DNA of 36,900 nucleotides. Origin: a virus. Lineage: Duplodnaviria; Caudoviricetes. Below, one piece after another: positions 3,880-34,989 of the stretch. The notes beneath the pieces are model-generated. The model made no database searches. It was not told where the DNA came from and saw nothing but the letters and a program-made list of their open reading frames with translations. The DNA lies in the IMG/VR virus record IMGVR_UViG_3300037483_000185, positions 1 through 36,900 of that record; one strand, 5' to 3'. Numbering within the stretch: position 1 is the stretch's first letter; each line of letters opens with the position of its first letter. The position numbers were made by a program, and so were the translations under genes.

Positions 3880-4787
3880 TTACGCCCTGCTATCGAGCAC
3901 GATGAAGTGCGACTGAGTCGATCCACCCTTGTATGGTGTGAGGGCTGAGGCCCGGACTGGCTGGCCATCGGTCCGCATGACGAACCGGAAGACCGACTCG
4001 TCATAGATGAACCGGACGTGGATGCTCATGTCGCTCTTGATCCCGCCCTTCTCGGCGATGACGTAACCGTTGGGGAAGTTCGCAAGGATCAGGTCGCCAG
4101 CCGTGCCAAGCGCGGCTGCCTGCTCGATCGCCAGTGCAGGGAGACCCTTGATGCGACCGTACGGAGTATCGCTCAATCCACCCGGAGGCAGATAGACGGG
4201 GATCCCACCCGTACCTACTGCATAAGACATCTGCGACAACTGCGGTTCGATGGTCTGATTATAGAGCCACACATAGTTGGACGTCTGCGATGCAAACCGG
4301 CGTGCAAACATCTTGTCGATATTCTCGGCAACGATCGTTGCCGCATTCTGTCCCGTCTCCTTCGCCACGCTGACAAGGCACGAAGCGTTCAGGATGCCGA
4401 GAGGCTGGCCGGCGCCGGTTCCGTTGACGATTGCATCGTCCATCAGGAACCCGAACTCACCCACGAACCCGTCACGGATGAATCCCTCTAGGGCCGCAGC
4501 GTCGTCAAGCAACTCATCGGTCGCGTAGCAGAGGCCGATGAGCTTGTTGAGGTTCAGTTCGATCTTGCGGAACTTCGGGGCGGACTTGGTCTTCAGTTCC
4601 GCTTCGCTCGCCCAGTAGCCGACGATCCCACCGTAGCGGGTAGAGACACGGGAGGTCTCATCGACACCGTTGATCTTCATGCTGTTGGCATTGCCGCTGA
4701 TCGGCTGCCGGCGGCACCGGGAAGCGAGAACGCCAGTCTGGAACACGTCCTGCAACAGGTCGGTCGCGAAATCTTGCTGAACCAGAA
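3880..4787 (-). CDS. major capsid protein (HK97 fold), exon 2
   Basis: TDELLDDA, GTGAGQPLGIL, GDLILANF, FRFVMRTDG motifs; joins exon 1 to give SDGGF-LVQQDF (438 aa spliced). Confidence 0.9.
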
Positions 4788-5511
4788 CGATCCATCCCCA
4801 GACTTTCGAAAGGGGTCGGACTATATCATCACAGTTTGAAACAACGAATAGCGACCGTCAGAACTGTTTCTCCGGCTTTCGGATTTTTGCCGGTTCAATT
4901 CGCTATTCGCCAACTGCGCCTCGCGTGTAGTCTCTGAGGTTCCCCGTTTTTGCTTGGCAATACAGGATTCAACAATCTGTGCCTCCCGTTCGGTCATTAC
5001 GTTGTGATGACTTCCGGGAATCCAGGTCCGCAGTCTCGACTGGCAATACTCAAGGACCAATTCGCCCCTCTCTTTTTTCATGCCAGTTAAATACGGATTT
5101 ACCAACTCCAACACCGGGATGAGCTTATTCATTCGATGGACGATCAATACCCATACAATCTTCGACTTGGGCTTATTCCTTATCCCATAGCCGTGAGTCC
5201 TGATGTATGGATTCACGCCAACCTTTTGAATAATTTTCTTGGCCTTCAAGATCATGGCCTCATCTGTGTTGGATACCTGGAGTGCACACGAATAACTCGG
5301 ATGGCATCGGCGGGTCTTGTATTCTGATATCCCGATATATCCTTCGCCATCTATAAATCCTGCAAGCCAACCAATTTCAATCTGGGTTACCTGCTGATTG
5401 CCTATTTCGGCCGTAGCCTCATCCTCAAGGATTTTCGCATAGGTAGCACCTTGGGCTTTAAGGGGTTCCAGCAAATAGCGAGGTTTCATGTGGGCCTCTG
5501 GCTTTACGCTA
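4788..5511 (-). mobile_element. group I intron (724 nt) in major capsid gene
   Basis: 5' exon ends in U (GTGGGT pairs GCCCAC, U.G wobble, P1); IGS AGCCAGAG pairs 3' exon TTCTGGTT (P10); P TTGCTGGAA, Q AATCAGCAGG, R CTCAGAGACTACA, S ATGATATAGTCC; terminal G at 4788; splicing restores frame. Confidence 0.92.
4821..5489 (-). CDS. intron-encoded single-motif LAGLIDADG homing endonuclease
   Basis: WLAGFIDGEG motif, LQVSNTD, PYLTGMK; lies inside the intron. Confidence 0.88.
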   Translation of the reverse strand: MKPRYLLEPLKAQGATYAKILEDEATAEIGNQQVTQIEIGWLAGFIDGEGYIGISEYKTRRCHPSYSCALQVSNTDEAMILKAKKIIQKVGVNPYIRTHGYGIRNKPKSKIVWVLIVHRMNKLIPVLELVNPYLTGMKKERGELVLEYCQSRLRTWIPGSHHNVMTEREAQIVESCIAKQKRGTSETTREAQLANSELNRQKSESRRNSSDGRYSLFQTVMI

Positions 5512-5920
5512 ACCCACCATCCGACGGAACGCTTTCGGACATCCCGGAAGCGGCGGCGGCACGGAACAACCTCGGGTCGGTATGGCCGTTGGGCAGACCC
5601 GCCCGCATGACGGCGGCCATCTGCTCGCCGAACGAAAGGAACTTGTCCTTCTTCTCGGCACCTTCCGGCCGAGCATGACCCTGCGGCGTAGGCCGGGTGA
5701 TCGGGGCAGGGGTGGCGGCCAATGACGCCGTCATCCTCTCCTGACGCTCCTGTGTGGCGATGATCGTCTGGAGTTCGTCGACGTTGTCCATGAGTTCGGT
5801 CTTGAGCTTGATCTCGGTTTCGGAAGGATCACGCCCCTCTGCAACCAACTTCGCGTCGATGTCACCGACCTTCTTGACAAGGCGGGCGAGGTCTTCGCGG
5901 TATCCGGAAATGGTCTTCAT
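5512..5920 (-). CDS. major capsid protein exon 1 (coiled-coil delta/scaffold domain)
   Basis: SD GAGGAG, coiled-coil N-terminus, FLSFGEQMAAV...DPRL...GMSESVPSDGG. Confidence 0.88.
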
Positions 5921-9323: not shown

Positions 9324-12281
9324 TCATAAAACTACTATACCCCGGCTTTCATATATTGATGTCGTGTCGTTTTTAAGCATGGCTCTTGATATTGCCATAA
9401 TCATGGCGACTACACCATCAATCTTTTCAGTGGATCGTTCCTTGTCAGGTTTTAGGTTAAAAGCCGGATCTGTTTTTACTACTGTATTTGAAACCATCCA
9501 CGCCAAAACGGGGTGCCCTGCGTGGGCAATCTCGCCCGATAAAACCATCTTCTCTAATTCCTTGGTCGGAGAAGACATCGAAGCAAAACCTTGCCCAAAT
9601 TGAATGAGATTGCATTTGCCCTCTACTTCAAACCCCAAATCCTGTAAATCAGTAATAATTTTCTGGCTTCCCCATCTATCAAAAGCCAACTCTGCCAAGT
9701 CGTAGTCGGTCAAGTCCTTCTGGATTTGAGCAAGAACGTACTTGTAGTCGATCACGTTGCCCGGCGTTGCAGTTATAAATCCTTGTCGGACCCATACGTC
9801 ATAGGGCACTTTGTCCCTACGTGCCCGCTCCCGCATGTTGTCTTCGGGGATGAAGAACCGGCAGAGGACCGAATACTTGCCGCCGATCTTCTCGGGGGGG
9901 AACACGAGTACCCATGCCGTGATGTCCGTCGTGGAGGACAGGTCGAGGCCGCCGTAGCAGATCCGTCCCTTCAATGCCTCGGGATCGACCGCATCGCCGC
10001 AGGCGTTCCACTTCTCCAAAGATAGCCATTTTGTTACGGATTCTGTCCAAATGTTGAAGTTAAGCCTCTTGACAATGTTTTCCTTCGACGGCATCTCCGA
10101 CGCCTCGGCAACCTGCTCCCGCAGGTACTTACGCGGAATGATGACATCGAGACTCGGGTTTGCCTTGATCCACTTCGACTCGTCTTTCCATGAGTCGCAG
10201 TCGGGGCAACCGTCTACCGGGATCGTCTTCCCGTCCGCCGAACACTTCTCGCAGACATCCAAACCCGTGATGTACGCGAACCATGAATCGTTCTCGAAGA
10301 CGCCTTCAAGGATCTTTTCGCTGTGCTCGTGATGTTGGTAACAAACCGAGTGGCGGTCATATCCGCTGTTGTGCGTCGGGACCATTGAGCGACCAGCAAG
10401 AAACAGGTGCGACGGCGAATCAACCGAGATGCACCTTACCGGGACAGACGAGACTGGTTGAACGTCTACAATTCTCCTGTTTCCCGTCATCCTTTTTCTG
10501 GTATGCCTAATTCGGTTGTGCCGTTGCTTTCTTTCTAATCCGAATATCTTCATCCCCCACGGGGGATAAAAAAACACATCCCACCGGTCGAATGATTTGC
10601 CCATTAATTCGGATATACTGTGCAACATCGTGCATTTTATTCCGAGGCTACTTACGAGTTCATAAACCTGCGAGCATAGTTCCTCTTTGCTTTGCGTAAA
10701 TACGCAACGCCCCGTTCTCGGGTCGATGCTCCCGTCAGTATCCATGAGTCCATGAAGCAACGCCGACCGCTGTCGGATGGATGCTCTCAAGTATTCGGGA
10801 GGGATATGCTTGTTTCTTAGAAGTCCCTCTCGCTTCATCGTGCAATGAAGAGAATCTTGCCGCCCCCTGCCCGTAACCCCTATCCCGTACATCCCGAGGG
10901 TGGGGGAACACCCGACTTGCCTTCTCCGTCCAACTGAAACCCCTGCGGCGACAATGTTATCGACTATCTCCAAATCACCGTCGGTTACAACAATGGCCGC
11001 ATCCTTTGAGTTCCCGTCTCCGAGCCAACAACCCAAGACGTAGGGGTCTATCGGTAAATCCGCTTCGGGGAGGTTTAATGATTTGCATAAGCGCACGCGA
11101 TGATTTGCGTACGTTCTCCATTTCAGCGTTCTTTCAATTTCCTCTGTGGATCTTATGCCCACCCGCTGCCGTAGCTTGTTCCTATGCCCGGAAGCAACGT
11201 AACTTCTATGTCTGCCGTTCCCATCAAATTCATAGAAGGTGCTACCGCAACCGCATATACATTCGACTAACCTGTTTGGTTCCCCTGCTTTTCTTCGCTC
11301 CCGTTTTGGAAGATTGTCCTCTCTCCGCCCCGCAACCATTTCGTCCCAAGACATACTTCCCCGGACCTGCGTGGTTTCCCACAGGTGCCCGGCATCGGCT
11401 ACTATTTCTGTCCCATCATCGAACACAACCCTATAGCACTTGTGGTCGCGCATGATGTCCGTGGCCGCAACAACATTGCATGTGTTCCCATCGTCGTCGA
11501 AAACCTGATCTCCGACATTCAGCGTTCCCATCGTCGCCCATCCGCTGGGCACCGGGATCGGGGTATCGAGCGAAAGGGCGTTTGTAATCTCTACGATGAG
11601 TGCCTGCCGACGGCCCTTTGTCCCCGCCCGCATCTTGTCCACAACGAGTGCGTTCGGATGCTCGTGAATCTCGTCGATCAGCGCGATATGCGGACGCTTG
11701 CCGTCCAACCCCCGGTGCTCGGACGACAGCGGGCGGAAGTAGGAGTTTTTCTCCGTGTAGGCGATGTTGCTTTTGTCTACTGTCAGGCGGCGCAGGAGCG
11801 CGGGCGACCCTTCAACGAACGCTTTGGCATCGCGGAACAGAATGCCCGCTTGGTCGCGGGTAGTCGCCGCTGAATAAATCTCGCAACCTGGCTCGTCATC
11901 CATGACGAGGCCGTATAGACCAATTCCTGAAGCGAGCGGCGTTTTCCCCGCGCCCTTCGAGGCTTCAATATATGCAGTACGGAACCGCCTGAATCCATCT
12001 TCCGACTTCCAACCGAACAGGTTGCCGACGATAAATTTCTGCCACGGCATCAGGTGAAACGGCTTGTTATCCCACTCGCCTTCGTAGAACACGAGAAGTT
12101 TCGGGAAGAACTCTATCGCCCGCATCGCCGTCTTATGGTCAAAATAAAGACCCCGCGAGGGGCCGTCTTCCAAGTCCTTCAGGTGTCTCTTACATGCGAG
12201 ACGCACCCAGCGGTTCGCTAATATCTTCCCGCTGCCCACATCCTCCGCGTATTGCTTGACCGGACAGGCATCAGCGGCCAT
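9324..12281 (-). CDS. terL: terminase large subunit with intein (581 aa after splicing)
   Basis: Walker A SKGAGKT, Walker B ALIDEIH, nuclease GGLDLS, KIDGVVA. Confidence 0.95.
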   Translation of the reverse strand: MAADACPVKQYAEDVGSGKILANRWVRLACKRHLKDLEDGPSRGLYFDHKTAMRAIEFFPKLLVFYEGEWDNKPFHLMPWQKFIVGNLFGWKSEDGFRRFRTAYIEASKGAGKTPLASGIGLYGLVMDDEPGCEIYSAATTRDQAGILFRDAKAFVEGSPALLRRLTVDKSNIAYTEKNSYFRPLSSEHRGLDGKRPHIALIDEIHEHPNALVVDKMRAGTKGRRQALIVEITNALSLDTPIPVPSGWATMGTLNVGDQVFDDDGNTCNVVAATDIMRDHKCYRVVFDDGTEIVADAGHLWETTQVRGSMSWDEMVAGRREDNLPKRERRKAGEPNRLVECICGCGSTFYEFDGNGRHRSYVASGHRNKLRQRVGIRSTEEIERTLKWRTYANHRVRLCKSLNLPEADLPIDPYVLGCWLGDGNSKDAAIVVTDGDLEIVDNIVAAGVSVGRRRQVGCSPTLGMYGIGVTGRGRQDSLHCTMKREGLLRNKHIPPEYLRASIRQRSALLHGLMDTDGSIDPRTGRCVFTQSKEELCSQVYELVSSLGIKCTMLHSISELMGKSFDRWDVFFYPPWGMKIFGLERKQRHNRIRHTRKRMTGNRRIVDVQPVSSVPVRCISVDSPSHLFLAGRSMVPTHNSGYDRHSVCYQHHEHSEKILEGVFENDSWFAYITGLDVCEKCSADGKTIPVDGCPDCDSWKDESKWIKANPSLDVIIPRKYLREQVAEASEMPSKENIVKRLNFNIWTESVTKWLSLEKWNACGDAVDPEALKGRICYGGLDLSSTTDITAWVLVFPPEKIGGKYSVLCRFFIPEDNMRERARRDKVPYDVWVRQGFITATPGNVIDYKYVLAQIQKDLTDYDLAELAFDRWGSQKIITDLQDLGFEVEGKCNLIQFGQGFASMSSPTKELEKMVLSGEIAHAGHPVLAWMVSNTVVKTDPAFNLKPDKERSTEKIDGVVAMIMAISRAMLKNDTTSIYESRGIVVL
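10368..11579 (-). mobile_element. class 3-type intein (404 aa, residues 235-638) with LAGLIDADG domain
   Basis: ITN|ALSLDTPIP start with Ala1; block B ADAGHLW, block F VRCISVD, block G PTHN|S (W-C-T triplet); LGCWLGDG and LHGLMDTDG motifs. Confidence 0.9.
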
Positions 12282-16197: not shown

Positions 16198-17064
16198 TCA
16201 CAACAGCATCCGGTTTACTGTGTATACATCCATGCTGGCCCGTTCCACTCGAACATATACCTCAACATGCCCCATCGCGTTCGGCGCGAACTCTCGCTGC
16301 TCCTCCCAAGATGTATCTTGGTTGTCCGACCGGGACTTCTTGTAGCAGCCGGTGTTCATCAGGATTTCTTTCTCGGAGGTGATCTTTCCGCCGCCGTTCA
16401 TCCCAAGCCGAAGATTGCAGTCGCTCCATAGTTGATGGTTGTGGGCGAAACAATAGATATCCGCTATCCGGCCCTTCGCCACGTTCGCTACCGTGGTCTT
16501 GGGGCCTCCAAGAGTCCTCCCCGCCGCGCCTATGCCATGCGACAGGTACCAGACGATCGTGCGGGTATTGCGATGCCCGGAAGAAGTGGAGAACCGCGTC
16601 TTCAGGAAACCGGCGTAACTATGAAGGCGGCCGACCAGCGGGGTGTTCGCTACCTTATCGCCCCACAACTTCTCGGCGATTCGGCGCGTCACATTCGTTC
16701 CCGTCCGCTTCATCAGTTCGAGGTGATGATTTGAATCACACATGGCGATGACGCGAGATGCGATGGGAGCAAGGAGGTCACAGTAATCCGAGATGAGCCT
16801 GTCTACTGGGTTGTCGATCGCGAGGTACGACTCGTCCACCATCGATGCTTTGAATCTCGGGTCGTGCGTCTGCGCCAAGATCATGTCGCAACCATCGCCC
16901 ATGTCCAGAAAGTACGTGTCCTTGTCGTCCTTGTATTTATCGATGACTTCTTTCTGGAAATTGGAGATGGACGAGAGTTTGTGGCCGAGGTGAATGTCGC
17001 CAAACGGGATGAACCGGAACGTCTGCCCGACCTTGTACGGTATCCTGAACTCTTGGCCTCTCAG
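16198..17064 (-). CDS. calcineurin-like metallophosphoesterase, probable CTG start
   Basis: GDIHLG (upstream of first ATG), MGDGCD, SNH, SHG, AHNH motifs. Confidence 0.75.
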   Translation of the reverse strand: MRGQEFRIPYKVGQTFRFIPFGDIHLGHKLSSISNFQKEVIDKYKDDKDTYFLDMGDGCDMILAQTHDPRFKASMVDESYLAIDNPVDRLISDYCDLLAPIASRVIAMCDSNHHLELMKRTGTNVTRRIAEKLWGDKVANTPLVGRLHSYAGFLKTRFSTSSGHRNTRTIVWYLSHGIGAAGRTLGGPKTTVANVAKGRIADIYCFAHNHQLWSDCNLRLGMNGGGKITSEKEILMNTGCYKKSRSDNQDTSWEEQREFAPNAMGHVEVYVRVERASMDVYTVNRMLL

Positions 17065-20696: not shown

Positions 20697-21701
20697 CTAC
20701 GCGCTTATGGCGAGGCCGAGGGCTGGCTGGAAGGGGGCGGATAATTTGTTGCTCTTACTTATGTTTGCCTCTGCCCACATGGGTTGCAAATTGCTGATCG
20801 CCCAACATCGCCTGAAGTCGATGTCATACTCCGTAGTGAAGTTAAATGCCGATACCGGGATCTCATGGTCAATGTGTATCTCGCCATTGAGAAAACGCTT
20901 CCAAGTCATCCCCTTCGTGAACCGCTTCTCCAGGTGTGTCTTCAGGTCGCCGGGGGAGTAATCGAGAAGGGTGGACCACTTCTTGCCCCCTTTCCCGCGC
21001 TTCAATGAACTAAATATCAAATATCTCATCCTGTTTTTGATATTAAAATGGACATCGGTTCTTCTTCGTTCTGTCTCTTGCGCCCGACGAAGGGGTTTAT
21101 TCCGCTCTTGCCGCGCCCTATCTTGGGCGGCGTGGACGATGCGCTGTTTCTTTTTGTAGGCTTTCCCGGCGGGAGTCTTTATGTATTTTAGCTGTTTCGC
21201 GGTCGCGCACGGCTTACATGTGTTGCCAAAACCGTCGCACGCGCTGGCGCTGTTGTAATAATTGTCCGGGGTCATCGCCTTGTATTCCTTGCAGACCCAA
21301 CACCGCTTCATCGTAACTCCATCGACAACGGGGCGGTTCCGCTTTATTCTTTCAGCGTCGATCCTGCGGCGAGAACAAATGTGGGAGCAATACATTTGCT
21401 TCTTAAATCGCACCGTATATTTTTGCCCACATAAGCCGCAATTTCTTTCGCCATAGGATCTAACCTTGCGGAAAAATTCATTGTCGTATTTTCTTCTGCA
21501 TTCGCAAGAACAGTATTTCTTCTTCCGCCCCGCGAACTCCGCGCCGCACTGGAGGCAGGCGTTTGCCGCAGCACTATTCGGCCCACGGTGCGCCCTACTG
21601 CGTTCCCTTGACATTTCCCTGTTCGCGTCCGACCTGCACTTCTCCCCGCAATATTTCCTTTTGCGGCCTTCAAATTCCCTCTTACACTGGGGGCAGATCA
21701 T
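20697..21701 (-). CDS. free-standing HNH/endonuclease VII-like homing endonuclease with repeated Zn modules
   Basis: Three CxxC..YC..C repeats plus C-terminal GMTW..HIDHEIP..NLQPMW..NISK, same domain as 8577-9302. Confidence 0.8.
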   Translation of the reverse strand: MICPQCKREFEGRKRKYCGEKCRSDANREMSRERSRAHRGPNSAAANACLQCGAEFAGRKKKYCSCECRRKYDNEFFRKVRSYGERNCGLCGQKYTVRFKKQMYCSHICSRRRIDAERIKRNRPVVDGVTMKRCWVCKEYKAMTPDNYYNSASACDGFGNTCKPCATAKQLKYIKTPAGKAYKKKQRIVHAAQDRARQERNKPLRRAQETERRRTDVHFNIKNRMRYLIFSSLKRGKGGKKWSTLLDYSPGDLKTHLEKRFTKGMTWKRFLNGEIHIDHEIPVSAFNFTTEYDIDFRRCWAISNLQPMWAEANISKSNKLSAPFQPALGLAISA

Positions 21702-21737
21702 AGAAATAAAGTATACCACAAACGGCAATCAAGTCAA
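21702..21737 (-). promoter_or_regulatory. sigma70 leaderless promoter
   Basis: TTGACT-16 nt-TATACT (TGn extended)-8 nt-ATG. Confidence 0.6.
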
Positions 21738-22342
21738 AGCGGTTCCCGGGGGAGAAATACCCCCACCCGCGTGAGGCCACCGAAACCCACCAAAGTCTGC
21801 CGAACCCGCCTCACGCTCCGCCAGCCCCCCCGGGGGGTTGCACAGACGCCCGGAGCACCAACCCATTGATTATGCATGATATTTGTAAAATACCGCCACA
21901 ATCTGGCGAAATCCGCAAAAAAGGGGGACCAAAGTTGCGAACCGCGCATGCTAGCATTCTTGGGACCATCCGGTTGCCGGGGCTGTCGTTGCAGAGGCTT
22001 GACCCCCCCTCCCAAGTACCTGTATTCGTTTATGTTTCCCTATTCTATAACGTTCTATCGTACAGTACAACACATCCCGCATTATTCCACTTACCCCATT
22101 ATGAAACGACGCATCGTACATTAAAACGGTATCCCACTGTTCTATATTCCCGCGGTATCGTACCCGCTCGTACCAGGTCGACGGATCCGACCGTCCGGAT
22201 GGTCGAGGGTATCCCGTTCCTCGATCCTGGGGGCTCCTGGGCTATGGGCGCCGCATTCCTTGAGCCCCAGTCTCCAATATTTATTTTCAGCCGGTCCGGA
22301 TGATTGCGTATCATTTCGATATTCACACTCATTAGCCCATAA

Positions 22343-22448
22343 ACTGTAAAATATCCCGACATATATCGTCGGATTATTTTACAGTATATCTATATGATAT
22401 TATTACGTATGTAAAATACCCTGACATTGAGTGTCGGATAACCTTACA
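22343..22448. repeat. two related imperfect palindromes in AT-rich divergent control region
   Basis: ACTGTAAAATA-TCCCGAC-N7-GTCGGA-TTATTTTACAGT and TGTAAAATA-CCCTGACA-N5-TGTCGGA-TAACCTTACA. Confidence 0.7.
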
Positions 22449-22477
22449 ATTTGCACCGATTACGTTATTGCATTCCT

Positions 22478-22511
22478 TTTATATTCAATGCTTTATATGG
22501 TATATTACAAT
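22478..22511 (+). promoter_or_regulatory. candidate promoter of plus-strand small-gene operon
   Basis: TGG-TATATT / TACAAT -10-like boxes in AT-rich tract upstream of first gene. Confidence 0.35.
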
Positions 22512-22632
22512 GGCATCATGTATGCATCATATATAGGCAAGAGTCCGGGCGATTCGACGAATAAACGGAGCGTCGACGATGCGAGACCTTCCCGGATCCG
22601 ACGGAAACATAAAACGAGAGGAGGGAAAGAAA

Positions 22633-22755
22633 ATGAACATGTTCGACTGTGCAAGCATGGAGGGAGAATTCGGCGCCCGGTTTTTCGGCGTATCTTCGGC
22701 CGCTGTGTCCGCGATCTTGCACGATAACCGGATCATCGACAGCGAAGGGAGATAA
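22633..22755 (+). CDS. small hypothetical (40 aa)
   Basis: SD AGGAGG, MNMFDCASMEGEF. Confidence 0.5.
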   Translation: MNMFDCASMEGEFGARFFGVSSAAVSAILHDNRIIDSEGR

Positions 22756-22760
22756 TCAAC

Positions 22761-22859
22761 ATGAACCTCGCCCTTAGTCTACTGGTACTCCCCGGATTCA
22801 TCGCATTCGGCGCCGCATGTTTCTACGTGTTTACGGTTTGCATGTTTATTATCGGATAG
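22761..22859 (+). CDS. single-TM peptide (32 aa)
   Basis: MNLALSLLVLPGFIAFGAACFYVFTVCMFIIG, SD GGAG. Confidence 0.5.
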   Translation: MNLALSLLVLPGFIAFGAACFYVFTVCMFIIG

Positions 22860-22870
22860 GAGGGGAAGAA

Positions 22871-23071
22871 ATGTGGCGAACAAGTAAGGAAAAGAAGTTC
22901 CGGCCGCACAAGTTGGCGCCCGAAACTAAGGTGCAATATGGTGGATTGGTGGGCAATGTTTACGAGCGATGGTACGATGCGGCGGGCGATAACTATTACA
23001 CGGTCCGATGGGATAACGGGAAAGCATTCTCTGTTAGGGAATCCGAGCTTATCGTATTGCGCGCAAAATAA
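22871..23071 (+). CDS. small SH3-like beta protein
   Basis: SD AGGAGG; GNVYER...YTVRWDNG...VRESEL. Confidence 0.6.
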   Translation: MWRTSKEKKFRPHKLAPETKVQYGGLVGNVYERWYDAAGDNYYTVRWDNGKAFSVRESELIVLRAK

Positions 23072-23087
23072 ACCAGGAGGAAAGAAG

Positions 23088-23318
23088 ATGGCGCGATTAA
23101 TTACTTATGATTCGCAGGGAAGGGAAATCGAGGTCCGCCTTTTTACCTGTGCCCATCCTGCAATTTTCGCGGGATACCGTTCCGGCCGTGATTTCCACGT
23201 TATAGAAGACGAAGGAATGCGGCCGATGCTGTACTGGAATGGAATCCGATCCCATGCAGACCGGCCGATGTTCGCCATTAAGATGCGCCGCGAGATGCGC
23301 CGGAAGTTGGGATACTAA
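23088..23318 (+). CDS. hypothetical protein
   Basis: SD AGGAGG, MARLITYDSQG. Confidence 0.6.
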   Translation: MARLITYDSQGREIEVRLFTCAHPAIFAGYRSGRDFHVIEDEGMRPMLYWNGIRSHADRPMFAIKMRREMRRKLGY

Positions 23319-23343
23319 CCCATAAACCAGGAGGAGAATAACC

Positions 23344-23655
23344 ATGAACTATTATTCCCCATCGGTCCGGAATCTGTTCGCCATAAAACGATACTTTACC
23401 GAACATCCGGACGGGAAGGTACCTATGGATTGGTGCACGTCATACGATCGGGAGGAATGGAGCCGGTTTTTCGTGGAATGCTTGAACCGAAAAATAAACA
23501 GGAACGAAACCCCCCGCGGCCGGAAGGACTGCCCGGAATGGTTCAACGACATGCGTCGGGCGTCCCGCGACCTGAACCGGCCGCGCCTTGCGATCCACTG
23601 GTTGCCAATGGAATTACGGAATCGATTCGCGCATAGAATATCAGACGCAGCGTGA
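23344..23655 (+). CDS. hypothetical protein
   Basis: SD AGGAGG, 103 aa. Confidence 0.65.
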   Translation: MNYYSPSVRNLFAIKRYFTEHPDGKVPMDWCTSYDREEWSRFFVECLNRKINRNETPRGRKDCPEWFNDMRRASRDLNRPRLAIHWLPMELRNRFAHRISDAA

Positions 23656-23704
23656 AAGGGAATACCGCGGAAAGGGAATACAAATAAAAAGGAGGATTCA
23701 GGAA

Positions 23705-24004
23705 ATGATTATCATCGACGCGAAACGCTGGTTTGATCGGAAATACGGGAATACTTATCATTCGGTCTCCGTCAACGTGGATGGTAAGCATATCGGCCGC
23801 GCGGATTTCGCCTATGGATATGGGGAACAGTATCTCCAGTCCGCACATGAAATCCTGATGGATGCCGGTATATTCCCGCGGACTGGGGAACATTTCAAGA
23901 GTGGAGCAGATAAGGATTATTCCGGATTCATGGATGATATGAGGAATAATCGGGAAAAGTACCACGTTACATGTGCGGACGTTTCGAGGAAAAAGGATCT
24001 ATAA
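23705..24004 (+). CDS. hypothetical protein
   Basis: SD AAGGAGG; RWFDRKYGNTYHSV...FAYGYGEQY...VSRKKDL. Confidence 0.7.
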   Translation: MIIIDAKRWFDRKYGNTYHSVSVNVDGKHIGRADFAYGYGEQYLQSAHEILMDAGIFPRTGEHFKSGADKDYSGFMDDMRNNREKYHVTCADVSRKKDL

Positions 24005-24037
24005 GCAGGGGAATACAGACCGAAGGGAGGAAGGGGA

Positions 24038-24442
24038 ATGAAACTTTCACGGTTCATTGAATCCCGCAAGGTGAGAATGGATCCGCCGGAATATGTCGCC
24101 GATAACCCCAACATGGCGGCCGATGATGGCTGGAAACGGTCCGCCACTCACTGGAAATGTACCATCCGGCGAGGGAATAAGCAATTAACAACTTATTTCT
24201 CGCAGGGATCGGCGCACACAAAGGAACCGACACTGGCCGACATTCTTGATTGCCTTGCGTCCGATGCGGCCGGTATCGACAATGCCGGGAGCTTCGAGGA
24301 TTGGTGCGCGGAATACGGGTACGACACGGACAGCCGGAAGGCGGAAAAGACATACAAGGTATGTGAGAAACAAGCGGAATCCCTGAAACGTCTATTCGGC
24401 GACGATTTCAAAACCTTGCTGTACGACACGGAAAGGGAATAA
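24038..24442 (+). CDS. conserved-looking phage hypothetical protein
   Basis: PTLADILDCLASDA...SFEDWCAEYGYDTDSRKA motif; SD present. Confidence 0.7.
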   Translation: MKLSRFIESRKVRMDPPEYVADNPNMAADDGWKRSATHWKCTIRRGNKQLTTYFSQGSAHTKEPTLADILDCLASDAAGIDNAGSFEDWCAEYGYDTDSRKAEKTYKVCEKQAESLKRLFGDDFKTLLYDTERE

Positions 24443-24444
24443 CT

Positions 24445-24624
24445 ATGAAAATCACCATTACATTTTCGGATGATAACGCCGCATTCGAGGACAATGGAAT
24501 CAGGGAATACCGTCGTATCTTCCAGCGAATCCTGGAGCATATCGAGGACGACCGCCGCGGAAAATGGAATGTCCGCGATTCGAACGGGAATACCGTCGGA
24601 TCGGTAATGTTTGAGGTCGAATAG
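24445..24624 (+). CDS. small hypothetical (59 aa)
   Basis: MKITITFSDDNAAFED...RDSNGNTVG; not in ORF track. Confidence 0.65.
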   Translation: MKITITFSDDNAAFEDNGIREYRRIFQRILEHIEDDRRGKWNVRDSNGNTVGSVMFEVE

Positions 24625-24666
24625 GGAATACAAAACAAGGGAATACATTTTAAAGGAGGGAATAAC

Positions 24667-24882
24667 ATGGCGAAAATCACCGCATCGCATTACGTCGCTG
24701 TCGAGACGCGGGGCGATTTCTGTTTCGCATACGTCCCGGGGTACGGAACCATCGAAGAGGCACGGAGGAATATCGCGGGCCGGAATGGTGGGAACTGGAA
24801 GATAAACCGCGTCGATGGACACTACAGGAAAAACGGAACGTGGAAACGCGATGCGGAAACGACGATTGAGGTTATCAGGTAG
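24667..24882 (+). CDS. hypothetical protein
   Basis: SD AAGGAGG. Confidence 0.6.
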   Translation: MAKITASHYVAVETRGDFCFAYVPGYGTIEEARRNIAGRNGGNWKINRVDGHYRKNGTWKRDAETTIEVIR

Positions 24883-24909
24883 CAGGGAATACAAAACAAA
24901 GGAGGAAAT

Positions 24910-25269
24910 ATGTCCCGCATGGCCGAGCGTGCCGCATTGATTGAAGATGTAGAAAACTTACTGGCCGATCCCCGCGCCGGGAATCCTTCCGACCTGGAAT
25001 CTATCCTCCGCGCCTTGCGGGAATTGAAAACGGATGATTATGTCAAGGGAATGCCCGAAGTAAAACGCTGTCCGATCATCGGGGAATTGATGGGGAATCC
25101 TCACGCATGGGTTATGCGTCCCGTTTGCGAATCATGCCAGGAGGATGACGGAACGATTGATTATTACACCATCGACGGTCGGACCGACGGTAAGGGAAAC
25201 GCTATCGGCGTCCCATTGTGTCAAGATTGCATCGATAACATCCGGGCCGATATGGGAGAAAAGTTCTAA
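24910..25269 (+). CDS. hypothetical Cys-containing protein
   Basis: SD AAGGAGG; CESC...CQDC. Confidence 0.6.
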   Translation: MSRMAERAALIEDVENLLADPRAGNPSDLESILRALRELKTDDYVKGMPEVKRCPIIGELMGNPHAWVMRPVCESCQEDDGTIDYYTIDGRTDGKGNAIGVPLCQDCIDNIRADMGEKF

Positions 25270-25307
25270 CAAAACAAGGGAATACAATCTAAAGGAGGGA
25301 ATTGAAG

Positions 25308-25499
25308 ATGACAAGGTATCGTATTGTGGTCGGAGAGATCGGCAACGAGCAGGGGCATATTATCCCGACATCCGCAACCGATGACGCGCAGGCTCGGGCC
25401 GCGCTCCGTCAAGCCCTTAAGCCCTATGGCCGGGATGGGTGGGGCCGGATCGAGCGCAACGAGACGCCGGACAATGACGCCACGTGGAGCCGCGAATAG
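25308..25499 (+). CDS. hypothetical protein
   Basis: SD AAGGAGG. Confidence 0.55.
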   Translation: MTRYRIVVGEIGNEQGHIIPTSATDDAQARAALRQALKPYGRDGWGRIERNETPDNDATWSRE

Positions 25500-25547
25500 G
25501 GAATCCCCCGGGAATGGAAAGCAAGGGGAATAAAATCTGAAAGGAGA

Positions 25548-26147
25548 ATGAAAATGGACGCGACCTTCACAGTACCGGCGAACGTACTTTTGGGAATGTC
25601 TCACCTGGTCGGGGATGAAGCGGTACGGAATGAAATCCGAGGATTACACCTTGAAAAACGGGACGGGAATATCCGCATCGTCGCAACCGACGGGCATCTG
25701 ATGGGATTGTTTGAAATCGGCGAATCGTCAATCGAATGGTTTGACGGCGCGGCGGGATACGAATCCGCTGAAATCCCGATTGCCAACTTTATTTCCATCC
25801 TGAAAGATGCCGCAAAAGGGAAACATGCCCGGGCCGTCAAGGTGTCATTAAACGGGACCGTCAAGATGGAATACTTCGGCCAGACAATCGAGGCGCCGTA
25901 TCTCGACAATGATTTCCCCGACTGGCAGCAGATATTTTCCTGCCGCATCGAAGAGCCGATCCCGTCGATCGGTATTGCGTCCGATAAGATACGCAAGTTT
26001 GAGAAGGCGCTTTCCGTCCTCACCGGGAGCAAAACACAATACATGCGCTTCCGCTTTTCCGGCGAGGAATCGGTAATGCACGTTACGGGAAATACGTCCA
26101 GCGAGGGAACATTCAACGGGCTACTGATGCCGGTAAGGACGCATTAA
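25548..26147 (+). CDS. truncated DNA polymerase III beta-clamp-like protein (199 aa)
   Basis: RNEIRGLHL..IVATDGHLM, DFPDWQQIF, C-terminal GLLMPVR resemble DnaN motifs. Confidence 0.7.
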   Translation: MKMDATFTVPANVLLGMSHLVGDEAVRNEIRGLHLEKRDGNIRIVATDGHLMGLFEIGESSIEWFDGAAGYESAEIPIANFISILKDAAKGKHARAVKVSLNGTVKMEYFGQTIEAPYLDNDFPDWQQIFSCRIEEPIPSIGIASDKIRKFEKALSVLTGSKTQYMRFRFSGEESVMHVTGNTSSEGTFNGLLMPVRTH

Positions 26148-26181
26148 TTAAGGGAATATATCCTGAAGGGAGGAATATAAA

Positions 26182-26457
26182 ATGACTACGTACTCGCGGA
26201 ATTTGCCGAAAGGTAAGATCATCGCAAAGGACTACCATCGGAACGGTGTTTGCGGGAATGGTTTCTCTGTGGGCATCGTCCGGGAGGGAAAGGGCCGGAA
26301 GGTGATCGTATGCTTTCCAGGCGAAGGGAATACCGCCGTTCTGGACATCGGAATGCTCGCGGAAGGGAATGTCACGTTCGGGGAAAACTCCTGGAGGGGC
26401 GACGTTTACGCCGATGCGTACAGGAAAGAGATCGTCGGGGATAACTTCGAGGAATAA
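26182..26457 (+). CDS. hypothetical protein
   Basis: YHRNGVCGNGF...GENSWRGD; SD GGGAGG. Confidence 0.65.
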   Translation: MTTYSRNLPKGKIIAKDYHRNGVCGNGFSVGIVREGKGRKVIVCFPGEGNTAVLDIGMLAEGNVTFGENSWRGDVYADAYRKEIVGDNFEE

Positions 26458-26492
26458 CAAGGGAATACAAAGGGAAAGGAGAATCGGTAACA

Positions 26493-26516
26493 AAACCCCC
26501 TTGTCCGGGGGGTTTC
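26493..26516 (+). terminator. hairpin inside small-gene operon
   Basis: AAACCCCC-ttgtcc-GGGGGGTTT, short U tract. Confidence 0.35.
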
Positions 26517-26586
26517 GCGGGGTGAAATATCGTAGCTACAAATAGGGAATGCGACGCGAAGGGAATGCAGACGAAAGGAGGATGAG

Positions 26587-26808
26587 ATGGAAAAGATGAC
26601 GAAAGAACAGGAAAACGCGCTGTTCGGCCCGGAGGATCACGAGGCACCGATAACCGGATGGGCCGTGATAGTGCAATACGATTGTCGATTGGGCGAGCGC
26701 GGGACTGTGGTATCCCAGCACAAGTCCTACGAGTTGGCCCGCAAAGCAGCCCGCCGGACCGGATACGACTCTTTCTTGCGTGTCGCCGCCGACGAAGGGA
26801 GGGAATGA
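26587..26808 (+). CDS. hypothetical protein
   Basis: SD AAGGAGG; VVSQHKSYELARKA. Confidence 0.6.
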   Translation: MEKMTKEQENALFGPEDHEAPITGWAVIVQYDCRLGERGTVVSQHKSYELARKAARRTGYDSFLRVAADEGRE

Positions 26809-26809
26809 A

Positions 26810-26941
26810 ATGTCAATGACGCTCGCCGATCACGCCGAAGCCTGGTGGAGGGAATCAGGAAAACAGGTGCCGCTGCGAGATACCTTCCGGTGGATGCTGA
26901 TGTATCACCGATGGGTACGGTTCGCGTTCGGGGATCTGTAA
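26810..26941 (+). CDS. small Trp-rich hypothetical (43 aa)
   Basis: MSMTLADHAEAWWRESG...WVRFAFGDL. Confidence 0.55.
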   Translation: MSMTLADHAEAWWRESGKQVPLRDTFRWMLMYHRWVRFAFGDL

Positions 26942-26980
26942 AGGGAATGCCGGGCGAGGGAATATAAAACAGGAGGGGAC

Positions 26981-27214
26981 ATGAAAACGAAACGCTATAC
27001 ATCACCGTCGGCAGACGATCTTATCGAATTCTGCGATGAGCACAACATGGGAACCATTGAATCCATTGAATATCTTGACGGTCTGTTGATAATGGCCCGC
27101 GAGGACCAGGTAGTGGGAATAAAAGCGGCCCGGAATAGATTTACGGATATGTTATTCCAATTTGAGCGCCATATTGGAATAAATGGGTCAAAAACTGCGC
27201 CGGAGGGAATATGA
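26981..27214 (+). CDS. hypothetical protein
   Basis: SD AGGAGG. Confidence 0.55.
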   Translation: MKTKRYTSPSADDLIEFCDEHNMGTIESIEYLDGLLIMAREDQVVGIKAARNRFTDMLFQFERHIGINGSKTAPEGI

Positions 27215-27357
27215 AACGAGACAAGCGCATAATCATCACGATGTCAACGGAGGAGTGGGAAACGGTCAAGCGGGCGGCGGAAGCAGACGGGAGATCCGTG
27301 TCGGCGTACATGAGACACGCCGCGCTGGAAAGGGCTAAGGGGAAGGTGGCGGCGTAA
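27211..27357 (+). CDS. ribbon-helix-helix DNA-binding protein (48 aa)
   Basis: KRIIITMSTEEWETVKRAAEADGRSVSAYMRHAALE, CopG/DUF1778-like pattern; ATGA overlap; not in ORF track. Confidence 0.75.
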   Translation: MKRDKRIIITMSTEEWETVKRAAEADGRSVSAYMRHAALERAKGKVAA

Positions 27358-27398
27358 GGGAATAGAAAATAAAGGGAATGCAGACGAAAGGAGGGGCC

Positions 27399-27629
27399 GT
27401 GAAACACAAGAATATCCGAGAGGATATCGTAAGTGGCATCGAAAAGGGTGATGGATGGGAGCCGGTGAAGTTGACCGACGAACAGAAAAAGGCACTGGAG
27501 GTCGGCCGCCGCCGATCCGCCGATTCCGTCTGCCCCTTTGATGTCCATTCCGGTCCAATACCCGACAAGTTGAAGGGCGAAAGGATATCGGTGACAACAC
27601 CGAAGTCGGCGCTGAAGAGGAAAAAATAG
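27399..27629 (+). CDS. hypothetical protein
   Basis: GTG start after AAGGAGG. Confidence 0.5.
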   Translation: MKHKNIREDIVSGIEKGDGWEPVKLTDEQKKALEVGRRRSADSVCPFDVHSGPIPDKLKGERISVTTPKSALKRKK

Positions 27630-27736
27630 GGAATGCCCCGCAAGGGAATGTAAATTAAAGGGAATGCGCCGCGAGGAGGGATACAAATTGAAAACAGGGG
27701 TGCCCGGAGGTCCGGTCGTTGCCTTCCGCGTCGATC

Positions 27737-28072
27737 CTACGCCGTATTTTTGCGTCTGGCGCGAGAGAGCGCGGCTATTTGTTCGGGACTTGCGGCCCGT
27801 TTCGCCTTTGCGGGATTCTTTCCCGCCCTGTATGGGTGTAGATAGCATATATTCTCGTTATCGTTCTTGCGTAGCAGTTTGCCGTCGCATGACTTCACTT
27901 GGTCCGTCGATCCCGCACACTCAAGGCAATGCGCCCGGATCTGCCGAACCTTGCTTCTCTTCCCGGTCCACACCTCGGGGTGTAGGTTGCATACCTTCGT
28001 GACGCATTCGGTTTGCGCTTGCGTATTACAGAACCGGCACTCCTTGCGGATCGCTTGCGCGGCCGTCAACAT
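27737..28072 (-). CDS. Cys-rich Zn-binding protein with duplicated IRxxCxxC..C..C.LHP module
   Basis: AIRKECRFC...CNLHP and QIRAHCLEC...CYLHPYR; SD AAGGAGGT. Confidence 0.65.
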   Translation of the reverse strand: MLTAAQAIRKECRFCNTQAQTECVTKVCNLHPEVWTGKRSKVRQIRAHCLECAGSTDQVKSCDGKLLRKNDNENICYLHPYRAGKNPAKAKRAASPEQIAALSRARRKNTA

Positions 28073-28136
28073 GTCGTGCCCACCTCCTTGGAGGGAATGT
28101 AATTTATAAGGGAATGCTCCGGGGAGGGAATGCGGA

Positions 28137-28370
28137 TCATTCTGCCATATCGCCGATCTTGCTCCGCTGCGTTTTGCTCATCCGCAATAATATCTCCGCG
28201 AGTTCGGCCCCCTCGGGATCGGAATGCTCGATGGCCCAGTTCCGACAGAACTCCACATCCGCATCGCTGACATTCCCATCGTCCAATACGACATGCAGAC
28301 TTCCCCATACTGGGTTCAATTTGTAATAGGCGCGGAATCTATCGATGACCTCCGGGATCGTGGGCTTCAT
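28137..28370 (-). CDS. hypothetical protein
   Basis: WGSLHVVLDDGNV...LLRMSKTQR. Confidence 0.6.
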   Translation of the reverse strand: MKPTIPEVIDRFRAYYKLNPVWGSLHVVLDDGNVSDADVEFCRNWAIEHSDPEGAELAEILLRMSKTQRSKIGDMAE

Positions 28371-28393
28371 TTGTCCGCTCTTTATTGTCATCA

Positions 28394-28585
28394 TTACCCC
28401 TGTCGCATTTCGTCCACGAATACATAAATAGAATATCCCGTAGTAATAATTATTGAACCTATCGCATATCCTACCCACGGTTGAAACGTTCCAGAAACGA
28501 GCCACATGAGCGCCCCGCCACTGGCGGCGATCCCTTGCCCGACGAGGGTATAGACTACAAAGAACTTAAAGCAATTCCATATCAT
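28394..28585 (-). CDS. two-TM membrane protein
   Basis: Hydrophobic, SD GGAGGAG. Confidence 0.5.
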   Translation of the reverse strand: MIWNCFKFFVVYTLVGQGIAASGGALMWLVSGTFQPWVGYAIGSIIITTGYSIYVFVDEMRQG

Positions 28586-33501: not shown

Positions 33502-34409
33502 GTACCAACCTCCATTGATTCTGGATTATGCTTCCGGCAATACATTCTTCCACCCTGCCCGATAATGCCGATGTTGACGCACCCTTCCTCGACGCATAGG
33601 TTCTTGGATTTGGGAGGCGGTTGTTCGGATGGTGGCTGCGATGGGCCATCCTTTGCGGCCCAAGAAAGAATTGTGTGGTAATGAGATTTATATTTATAAC
33701 CTTTTGACCCGATGCCATTATTTAACCGATCGATCATTGCTACCGTTCCTGCTTCCCCAAATCGTTCTATTAACTTCGCATGTTCTTTCTCCGTGAGCAT
33801 TACGAAGTCGAGAAATTTCTGTTTTGAGGGGGGAGGTGCATCTGGGTTGTCCGCGGGCTGTTGTAGATTTAGATCTTTTTCCCTTACCTTAACTTCCCTT
33901 AACTTCCTTTCTGGCGTGAGTGACCATGTACATATCTTGTACTGTACATGTACTGTCTTTGTGCATTTACGAGTACAATTTGGGCGGGTTACGGTATGAT
34001 TTTCCCATTTCCCACCCTTGTCTCTTTTGTGGTAAGTATATGATTGTCCGGGGAAAAGTGGATATGACGGGGCTGTTGGGTGCGGAATAGGTTGGTGCTT
34101 CTGGAACTGACGTACATGATAATAAATTCTATCGCCGTCATCTTTATCGCCGCAGTAGGGTATAACGAATCCGCGCTTTCTGTTGCCTTTCGTGAGTTCC
34201 AGTAGCCAATTCTGCACAATTTCGACCGTGACGTCACCGTCCCCCGGGAAGGTTTCCATCTTCACCTTGAGTTCATCCCCGTCAAAATTCCCGGCGTCGT
34301 CAGCGGACATAAGAAGGTACGAAAAGAACAGTCGAATGTCTCGGCTTAGTTTCAAAAGTTCAGGATCCTTCCGGATCTCCGGGGAGAGCATCCGGCGTTT
34401 TTCAGGCAC
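33498..34409 (-). CDS. phage replication initiator protein
   Basis: N-terminal RRMLSPEI..D....LS...RLFF..L...ADDAG, central iteron-coding stretch, C-terminal YKSHYHTILSW. Confidence 0.7.
   Translation of the reverse strand: MPEKRRMLSPEIRKDPELLKLSRDIRLFFSYLLMSADDAGNFDGDELKVKMETFPGDGDVTVEIVQNWLLELTKGNRKRGFVIPYCGDKDDGDRIYYHVRQFQKHQPIPHPTAPSYPLFPGQSYTYHKRDKGGKWENHTVTRPNCTRKCTKTVHVQYKICTWSLTPERKLREVKVREKDLNLQQPADNPDAPPPSKQKFLDFVMLTEKEHAKLIERFGEAGTVAMIDRLNNGIGSKGYKYKSHYHTILSWAAKDGPSQPPSEQPPPKSKNLCVEEGCVNIGIIGQGGRMYCRKHNPESMEVGT
33881..33980. repeat. iteron-like repeats within initiator gene (candidate origin)
   Basis: CCTTAACTTCC x2 and clustered TGTAC/GTACA repeats. Confidence 0.45.
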
Positions 34410-34989
34410 CGGTTTTCGCCTCTTTTAACGCTGGTAGCAAATTAATTTCCTTTATGTTGGCCTTTAATATATTTTTATTAAAATAAGCATCTAAATCCTT
34501 AAAGTCTTCATTTGTCATATACCAATCAGATCTCATTTCTGAAAATGTAATCCCCTTTTCTAGCATCAAATTGAATGTCGTTATAGACAATATGTCGTTG
34601 TCTATTAAATAACTGACGAGAAAAACAAAATCTCCGCCACGCTCTACGTCGGAACCGATAAGTTCACAAGATACATTTACAATATCAAACCGGCTACCTA
34701 AGTGTGCCGCAATATATCGATCTATTCCTCTTTTATATCTTAATATTTGACCAACCTCAGAATAACCAATCTTACCCTTTTTTAATTCAATTATCTCGAT
34801 GTCTAATATATTTACGGGATTACTGTTAGAATTAGGTGTATATTTATATGCTTTGAATCTGATTAAATCCACAACACCGTAAGTCGATATTGAGAATTGG
34901 CGAAATGTTGTAAATCCATGACCGTCGGCTTTGAATGTTTCGAACAAATAATCTTCCAGTTCTTTCTCGTCTTTCAATTCGGGCATCAC
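34402..34989 (-). CDS. AT-rich PD-(D/E)XK nuclease-like protein (NucS/EndoMS C-terminal-like)
   Basis: EKELEDYL...RQF..YGVVDLI...IIELKKG...VGQILRY. Confidence 0.65.
   Translation of the reverse strand: MMPELKDEKELEDYLFETFKADGHGFTTFRQFSISTYGVVDLIRFKAYKYTPNSNSNPVNILDIEIIELKKGKIGYSEVGQILRYKRGIDRYIAAHLGSRFDIVNVSCELIGSDVERGGDFVFLVSYLIDNDILSITTFNLMLEKGITFSEMRSDWYMTNEDFKDLDAYFNKNILKANIKEINLLPALKEAKTGA

Follow-up and report, generated by a model that had tools for sequence, protein, structure and literature searches.

A strand-polarised GGAAT field over a small-gene operon of a sediment phage and its analogues with other words in other phages

Introduction

Why a single short word should be repeated, in one orientation, all along an operon of small genes is the question raised by the sediment phage of IMG/VR record IMGVR_UViG_3300037483_000185, a partial HK97-type genome that was analysed over the whole record of 36,900 bases (hereafter, the window). 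A preliminary description, made from the letters of the window and its open reading frames (ORFs), had noticed a dense and polar repetition of the hexamer GGGAAT over a 5 kb operon. Here, we ask whether this field can be explained by base composition, which letters are under selection, whether other phages carry anything alike, and what kind of molecule could read it.

Results

The 47 plus-strand and 2 minus-strand copies of GGGAAT counted in the preliminary description between positions 23,037 and 28,131 were confirmed, and the word does lie at background elsewhere, with 5 plus and 15 minus copies in the remaining 31.8 kb. Outside the field, plus-strand GGAAT falls to 0.63 copies per kb, with 0 copies in 21,001–23,036. 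Markov models of orders 0, 1, 2, and 3, trained on the region 22,600–27,700 itself, predicted 2.2, 5.9, 7.8, and 20.6 copies of GGGAAT, respectively, against 44 observed (p = 4e-19 at order 2), and AGGGAAT was found 30 times where 2.0 were expected at order 2. As even models trained on the region underpredict the word, purine skew and composition resembling the Shine–Dalgarno (SD) sequence do not explain it; and because this composition test, set beforehand as the one that could refute the field, failed to account for the excess, we conclude that the field is real; it is also strongly selected, as shown below.

The selected core is the exact 5-mer GGAAT. The form AGGGAATR, previously given as the usual one, applies to the intergenic copies only: these (n = 28) follow AAGGGAATRCA with a period of 15–17 nt and with the SD one period downstream, whereas the in-gene copies (n = 46) hold no information beyond the letters of GGAAT, the A or AG prefix and the RCA suffix being restricted to the former. 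The tandems reported earlier were all present, and distances between neighbouring GGGAAT copies peak at 16 nt (9 pairs) and 15 nt (4 pairs). The position of copies after stop codons also held, GGGAAT being found at or just after the stop in 14 of the 14 gene ends from 23,655 on, in contrast to 0 of 3 earlier junctions; 20 fully intergenic copies are packed within 715 nt. The field was shown to be confined to the operon, which it carpets (22,633–27,629) much as first claimed, save that the first three junctions are bare and that the triplet 28,093/110/126, antisense to the mRNA of both genes flanking it, falls beyond the operon. Also bare are the non-coding gap of 900 bp before the field and 8 kb toward the HNH/terS gap, from which the field lies 8–13 kb away. 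The 5-nt core, the site-free promoter, and the fields of other words in other phages were missed by the preliminary description.

Its claim that many copies are embedded in coding sequence (CDS) was borne out by a synonymous test, in which the proteins were kept fixed and synonymous codons were permuted in 2000 shuffles. The CDS of the operon held 43 GGAAT versus 14.5 ± 3.1 in the shuffled sequences (maximum of 24 in the 2000) and 18 GGGAAT versus 4.4; the reverse complement ATTCC (6 vs. 4.1) was not enriched, and the one-mismatch classes tested were flat. Codon opportunities for GGAAT were used in 42 of 59 cases in the operon (8/13, 19/27, and 15/19 by frame) versus 46 of 231 in four other gene blocks (6/37, 8/32, 15/54, and 17/108 when taken separately), and the density reached 9.9 per kb of operon CDS versus 1.2–2.5 elsewhere. 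Other genes of the phage are not depleted of the word (27 copies vs. 24.8 expected).

Comparison of the gene at 24,038 with its counterpart in the motif-free locus L013 (loci are designated here by L numbers) revealed that 4 of its 5 sites are absent from the latter, three of them with amino-acid differences (PEY/PQY, AES/AEA, and ERE/ERM). In strain contigs, a whole 16-nt unit has been gained at 24,622, and genes have been lost, swapped or replaced, or reordered at the borders of motif arrays (24,621–24,880, 26,180–26,815, and 27,368–25,276), which reveals the operon as a shuffled cassette array over 24,621–27,368 of the window. Given this gain and this shuffling, the 16-nt period probably arose by duplication. 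Overall, it seems that density is kept and single sites are not.

Analogous polar words, whose presence in related phages had been raised as a question in the preliminary description, were found only in the form of other words: no second dense GGGAAT carpet was detected in scans of viral contigs (8, 0, and 5 loci) or genome contigs (41 loci), but carpets of ATACC, GAACG, and TGC[CG]G were. Arrays were fetched via two marker genes of the operon (80 of 457 metagenome loci and 80 of 106 viral loci), along with 8 cultured-phage regions and 80 of 144 viral loci. In a synonymous test with a per-gene cap, carried out on 76 arrays versus 53 control stretches (highest control score, z 5.8), the polar cases were ATACC in L080 (z 10.9), the window (8.5), and TGCGG in Arthrobacter phage Atuin (6.8). 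A scan at the DNA level, the score of which is noisy and reaches 6.7 in non-array loci, added GAACG in L146 (35 copies vs. 1). None of 30 further arrays rose above z 6.6, and scans of related loci with the beta-clamp-like protein of the operon and with the ParB of L080 returned nothing. With about four lineages in some 130 arrays, the carpet pattern is therefore rare. The closest relative, L013, has a marker 81% identical to that of the window, the same promoter type, and a short operon, with no field.

Several candidate words were rejected: CAGCAG in L143 and CCGCC in L142 were false hits caused by amino-acid repeats in one gene, GATC in L050 was contig-wide on both strands, AGAGAG in L107 dropped out under the stricter, per-gene-capped filter, TGGCA in L256 (z 6.6) was diffuse, and CTGCAG in L135 was set aside as a polar carpet for being palindromic. 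As a separate observation, CTGCAG occurs 20 times versus 3.8 in the CDS of L135 (6900–12,624), with about 31 copies across the region of the array and 6 in the first 6 kb. Related arrays also commonly carry repeated cassettes, and in L050/L051, L138, and L009, a repeated promoter-like cassette accompanies nearly every one of the small genes, with 22 copies in L050.

The carpet of L080 (8800–13,468; 33 plus-strand ATACC, with 29 of 40 codon opportunities used) lies over a small-gene array and starts inside a gene with a ParB-type helix–turn–helix (HTH_ParB). The closest architectural twin of the window is L146 (7200–11,100; G006:C1:49300-52800), where the GAACG field is limited to a counter-oriented operon in a 61.8-kb genome and combines copies inside genes with 9-nt tandems behind stop codons; a second integrase-like gene comes next, together with an HTH gene. 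In Atuin (L224, OK040794.2), 95 plus-strand copies of TGC[CG]G fill the first 5.8 kb at the left end of the genome. Enrichment there was detected in plus-strand genes (49 vs. 13–16) and also in the minus-strand genes 3–4 (23 vs. 8–10 expected), and the non-coding gaps hold 15 copies versus 2 in reverse. The same was found in phage Racecar (L226, MN234206.2, 1–6000), with 47 copies versus 11–15 in plus-strand genes and 32 versus 8–13 in the minus-strand gene 5. The polarity of the word in both phages is thus independent of gene direction. Their carpet occupies the first 5.8 kb of a long terminal repeat, with later genes at background, and is densest near the start of a minus-strand gene of DndB/ParB fold (DndB in Pfam; annotated as "ParB-like nuclease domain" in Racecar), which is found in only 4 Arthrobacter phages. 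A crude regular-expression motif screen of 105 array loci and 30 further ones revealed no ParB-like gene inside field-free arrays; L165, which has no field, carries such a gene 8 kb from its marker, and the hit obtained in L138 appears to be spurious. A ParB-fold gene thus lies within the field in 2 of 4 lineages versus 0 of 70–125 (post hoc Fisher p ~0.001). Together, the enrichment in minus-strand genes of Atuin and Racecar and the ParB-fold genes inside fields favour, for the class, a signal at the DNA level.

The features of the locus in the window are collected in Table 1. The minus strand encodes head–tail connectors, major capsid, ClpP protease, portal, terminase, and HNH proteins, in addition to two DNA methylases, NinG, an RNA ligase, and a replication initiator. 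Because homologues of the 24,038 gene (272 records) sit within small-gene arrays close to the genome ends of cultured phages, the operon appears to be an early array of the host-takeover type. It is preceded by a GG-N10-GC element that fits a sigma54 promoter, and the palindromes upstream of it may serve a host sigma54 activator as enhancers. Sigma54-type promoters precede small-gene arrays in the window, L013, L079, L118, and L034, with six of them in repeated cassettes in L118. A host search gave methylase matches only, in 5 + 88 genomes, and the enhancer pattern was found in 0 of 88.

Table 1. Coordinates of the field and of the features of its operon in the window.
Feature	Position	Strand	Remarks
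Polar GGAAT/GGGAAT field	23037..28131	+	GGAAT, 74 plus/6 minus; GGGAAT, 47 plus/2 minus
Intergenic tandems	23658/74, 24624/39/58, 25499/510/526, 26545/61, 26943/58, 27358/74, 27629/44/60	+	Within 23658..27665; SD in register
Intergenic single copies	24009, 24885, 25278, 26152, 26461	+	
Terminal triplet 28093/110/126	28093..28131	+	Beyond operon, between minus-strand genes 27737-28072 and 28137-28394
Counter-oriented operon, 17 small ORFs (40-197 aa)	22633..27629	+	Genome otherwise minus-strand
Candidate sigma54-type -24/-12 promoter, GG-N10-GC	22511..22526	+	From sequence; conserved in relative L013 (alignment)
Two related palindromes	22345-22383, 22410-22448	.	Lie 60-165 bp before promoter
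phrog_4273 gene, marker for fetching related arrays	24038..24442	+	5 GGAAT, 1 shared with motif-free L013
phrog_6246 gene, second marker	23705..24004	+	
Beta-clamp-like protein	25554..26147	+	TIGR00663 E 1e-6, below cut-off; phrog_947
Ribbon-helix-helix (RHH) protein, 48 aa, candidate field binder	27211..27357	+	Near operon end

The RHH protein matched Pfam NikA-like (E 1.9e-9), TacA1 (5e-5), and the NikA-like entry of the Atlas (0.92), and fell below the cut-off against NCBIfam MobA. No close homologue was detected except itself, and L013 gave no tblastn match to it. A site of the field overlaps the SD of its gene, and a doublet follows its stop. For the protein encoded at 23,344, no match was found in the Atlas, and its AlphaFold model (predicted local distance difference test, pLDDT, 48) was not used. 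Finally, we observed a G+C hairpin at 26,495–26,511, in the longest internal gap of the operon, scored as a minus-strand terminator; a LAGLIDADG gene that interrupts the major capsid gene, as a probable intron (3880–5920); a terminase with a LAGLIDADG insert, a probable intein (9324–12,281); and two unannotated ORFs that by eye are PD-(D/E)XK nuclease-like (34,402–34,989) and metallophosphoesterase-like (16,198–16,902, 48% identical to an L013 gene).

Discussion

The reading that we tentatively prefer, while holding it to be somewhat short of an even chance, is that the field constitutes a one-way array of weak DNA sites that a phage protein would coat to silence the early operon; the candidate for this protein in the window is probably the RHH protein. 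According to it, a host sigma54 activator would fire the operon early, and the RHH protein, encoded near the operon end, would accumulate and nucleate on the 16-bp tandems of the gaps, with the in-gene 5-mers as further footholds. The coated DNA would then block elongation, so that the operon would be shut off after its first burst, and the end triplets would keep transcription from running on into the converging genes. Word and binder would evolve together, separately in each lineage. The terminal triplet supports a reading at the DNA level, being antisense to the local genes.

A number of observations weigh on the other side. The 5-bp core is short for specificity on double-stranded DNA, the in-gene sites lack flanking information and clear spacing, and the promoter has no sites (0 plus-strand GGAAT in 21,001–23,036). 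In a sister strain (46 differences in 502 nt), the in-gene sites 24,310, 24,376, and 24,566 have been lost, a loss that is about that expected from neutral divergence, as judged from 40 of the 90 difference rows. No ParB-like gene was found in the window, and its connection with Atuin and L080 is therefore one of analogy; in L146, in turn, neither a ParB_N in the whole genome nor an RHH in the 30 ORFs scanned was found. In addition, the fields of the window, L080, and L146 lie on the coding strand and are limited to an operon, as expected of an RNA signal, antisense read-through could be an alternative cause of the pattern in Atuin, and the RHH protein could bind the promoter palindromes instead.

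Of the three hypotheses put forward in the preliminary description, stoperator-like silencing has come to lead, and sites for a ribonuclease (RNase) are its main rival. In that alternative, which we regard as unlikely though by no means negligible, GGAAU would be the target of a sequence-specific endoribonuclease, either of the host (MazF/ToxN-type) or of the phage (RegB-like), and the early mRNA would be quickly destroyed, or destroyed under a host signal. An exact 5-nt word, present on the coding strand only, in the three frames, free of context, and starting 500 nt inside the transcript would fit such a target, as would its density in the CDS of the operon relative to other genes, the A-rich and mostly unpaired intergenic copies, and a copy placed between the SD and the start codon in 7 of 13 genes (by eye). 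There are precedents too, in the MazF UACAU sites on phi3T/SPbeta and the RegB sites of T4. However, no RNase family was detected among 77 and 63 ORFs scanned on an incomplete contig, no GGAAU-cutting enzyme appears among the matches listed in the literature (20 of 87), and the other phage genes, as shown above, have not been depleted of the word. The triplet at 28,093 would require read-through transcription, and the fields over minus-strand genes of Atuin and Racecar, with their ParB-fold genes, are left unexplained. An RNA-binding repressor or terminator with a CsrA-like or Nun-like logic, which would prevent translation or terminate transcription from GGAAU pairs 16 nt apart, with one copy next to the SD, seems improbable to us: the SD in register with the 16-nt period, the tolerated spacing of 15–17 nt, and the arrays in ribosome-free gaps after stops agree with it, but ANGGA reaches z 2.3 only, GGA[CGT]T and GGAA[ACG] are not enriched, the sites lie outside hairpin loops, no candidate protein was found, and neither the in-gene saturation nor terminal triplets with no downstream gene are explained.

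The remaining hypothesis, a polar DNA signal read by the host in the manner of Chi or of FtsK-orienting polar sequences (KOPS), which would stop a helicase–nuclease or aid recombination or DNA entry, is weaker because the field follows the limits of the operon and not a DNA end, the flanking 900-bp gap and 8 kb on the HNH/terS side being bare; we give it little credence. Its density of about 14 per kb is also far from the one Chi per 1.9 kb of phage LLS, the near relative L013 has no field, and no over-representation of GGAAT was seen in 13 samples of candidate hosts (ratio 0.76–1.25, irrespective of strand). Oriented Chi sites do gather near one end in Rec-minus lambdoid phages (PMC12315714), the field of Atuin starts at the left end of its genome, and the word points inward from the presumed first-ejected end in Atuin, L080, and the window, as judged from gene order. 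A neutral relic of cassette shuffling, in which a 16-nt start-region unit was copied between genes, would be in keeping with the unit gained at 24,622, with the genes shuffled at array borders, and with the repeated cassettes frequent in related arrays, and probably explains the 16-nt period. As a whole explanation it is very improbable, being refuted by the in-gene synonymous tests: it cannot produce 43 copies within genes, spread over the three frames and in part accompanied by amino-acid changes with respect to L013. A decoy for type III restriction was ruled out by the opposite sites found genome-wide (53 on minus). GGAAT is also the −35 box of extracytoplasmic function (ECF) sigma factors; this was ruled out too, as no conserved −10 follows downstream.

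Two good models of the mechanism stand out, the polar DNA-binding field and RNase targets. Beyond the window, it is conceivable, albeit in our estimate below an even chance, that these are recurrent "pentamer carpets" of unrelated phages, in which the codons of a 4–6 kb early region have been rewritten with a one-way 5-mer (GGAAT, ATACC, GAACG, or TGC[CG]G) at 6–16 per kb, and a co-encoded RHH protein or ParB-fold clamp would use it as a private address for coating, silencing, or handling the first-expressed DNA. If carpets were indeed read by a centromere-type protein, a regulatory code would be hidden in synonymous sites, its word varying by lineage like an immunity type. The field would represent a region-wide regulatory layer in the synonymous codons of early, likely host-takeover, operons, of a kind that gene-level annotation and long-motif finders overlook, and under any mechanism the word points to a sequence-specific binder or nuclease not yet known. 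Its analogues recur, and as one pair of them, Atuin and Racecar, is in cultured Arthrobacter phages that grow on a harmless laboratory host, with a candidate protein inside the field, the idea is directly testable. A note of caution follows for synonymous recoding of phage early regions, which may not be neutral.

Comparison with known systems

In cluster A mycobacteriophages (L5, TipsytheTRex), stoperators are numerous asymmetric sites that follow the direction of transcription and lie in short intergenic gaps, where a halt of elongation has been proposed (PMC9283540). The field is like them in being asymmetric, oriented with transcription, and present in short gaps (14 of 14 gene ends from 23,655), with the triplet at 28,093 as an exception. 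In contrast, stoperators are 13 bp long, occur genome-wide and at promoters, and are bound by a two-domain monomer (PMC9283540), whereas the field has a 5-bp core (extended to about 11 bp in intergenic copies only), covers one operon, leaves the promoter bare, lies mostly inside codons, and has the RHH protein as its sole candidate binder. No HTH-Stoperator repressor gene was found among the 77 ORFs of the contig, which lacks the immunity region.

UACAU sites for MazF are enriched on transcripts of phi3T and SPbeta (bioRxiv 2023.04.27.537455; also a 2026 preprint for phi3T), and RegB of T4 cuts GGAG, extended on the 3' side by A-rich sequence, between early genes and within some of their CDS (PMC3014915). 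The field shares with both a short exact word on the coding strand, in coding and start regions. It differs in the word, GGAAT not being UACAU or GGAG/U (GGGAG and TACA are not enriched), in its higher density (about 10 per kb of CDS) over one operon, and in that the analogous field of Atuin ignores gene direction; no nuclease or MazE-like gene was identified for it among the ORFs scanned on the incomplete contig. With the Chi-rich lambdoids (LLS and MD8; PMC12315714) it has in common a selected, oriented motif clustered in one region, and it departs from them as a 5-mer that is far denser, bounded by an operon, and of a different word in each lineage.

KorB and KorA silence plasmid genes over distance by means of a ParB-fold protein on repeated short sites (PMC11790492). 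The field and its analogues are akin to such plasmid centromere and silencing systems in the association of ParB-fold or RHH proteins with repeated short sites, and unlike plasmid centromeres in having sites dispersed through coding sequence and not gathered in one centromere. The operator of KorB is palindromic, and the RHH proteins ParG and omega bind short direct repeats, on which they act both at centromeres and as repressors. The window resembles an RHH centromere system (type Ib/II) in that an RHH gene stands beside short direct repeats, and differs from it in that no ParA/ParM nucleoside triphosphatase was found among the 77 ORFs of the incomplete contig. CsrA/Rsm sites consist of ANGGA in hairpin loops, with free bases after GGA; in the field, ANGGA reaches z 2.3 only, and the sites do not lie in hairpin loops.

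No description of operon-wide pentamer saturation or of a GGGAAT field was found in the literature searched, which was covered in part, and the feature is apparently undescribed; the GGGAAT in PMC12658196 belongs to an unrelated Aca7 operator. In conclusion, the field resembles the MazF, RegB, Chi, and KorB systems and is a member of none of them, and among the known systems, it is the stoperators that it would appear to work most like.

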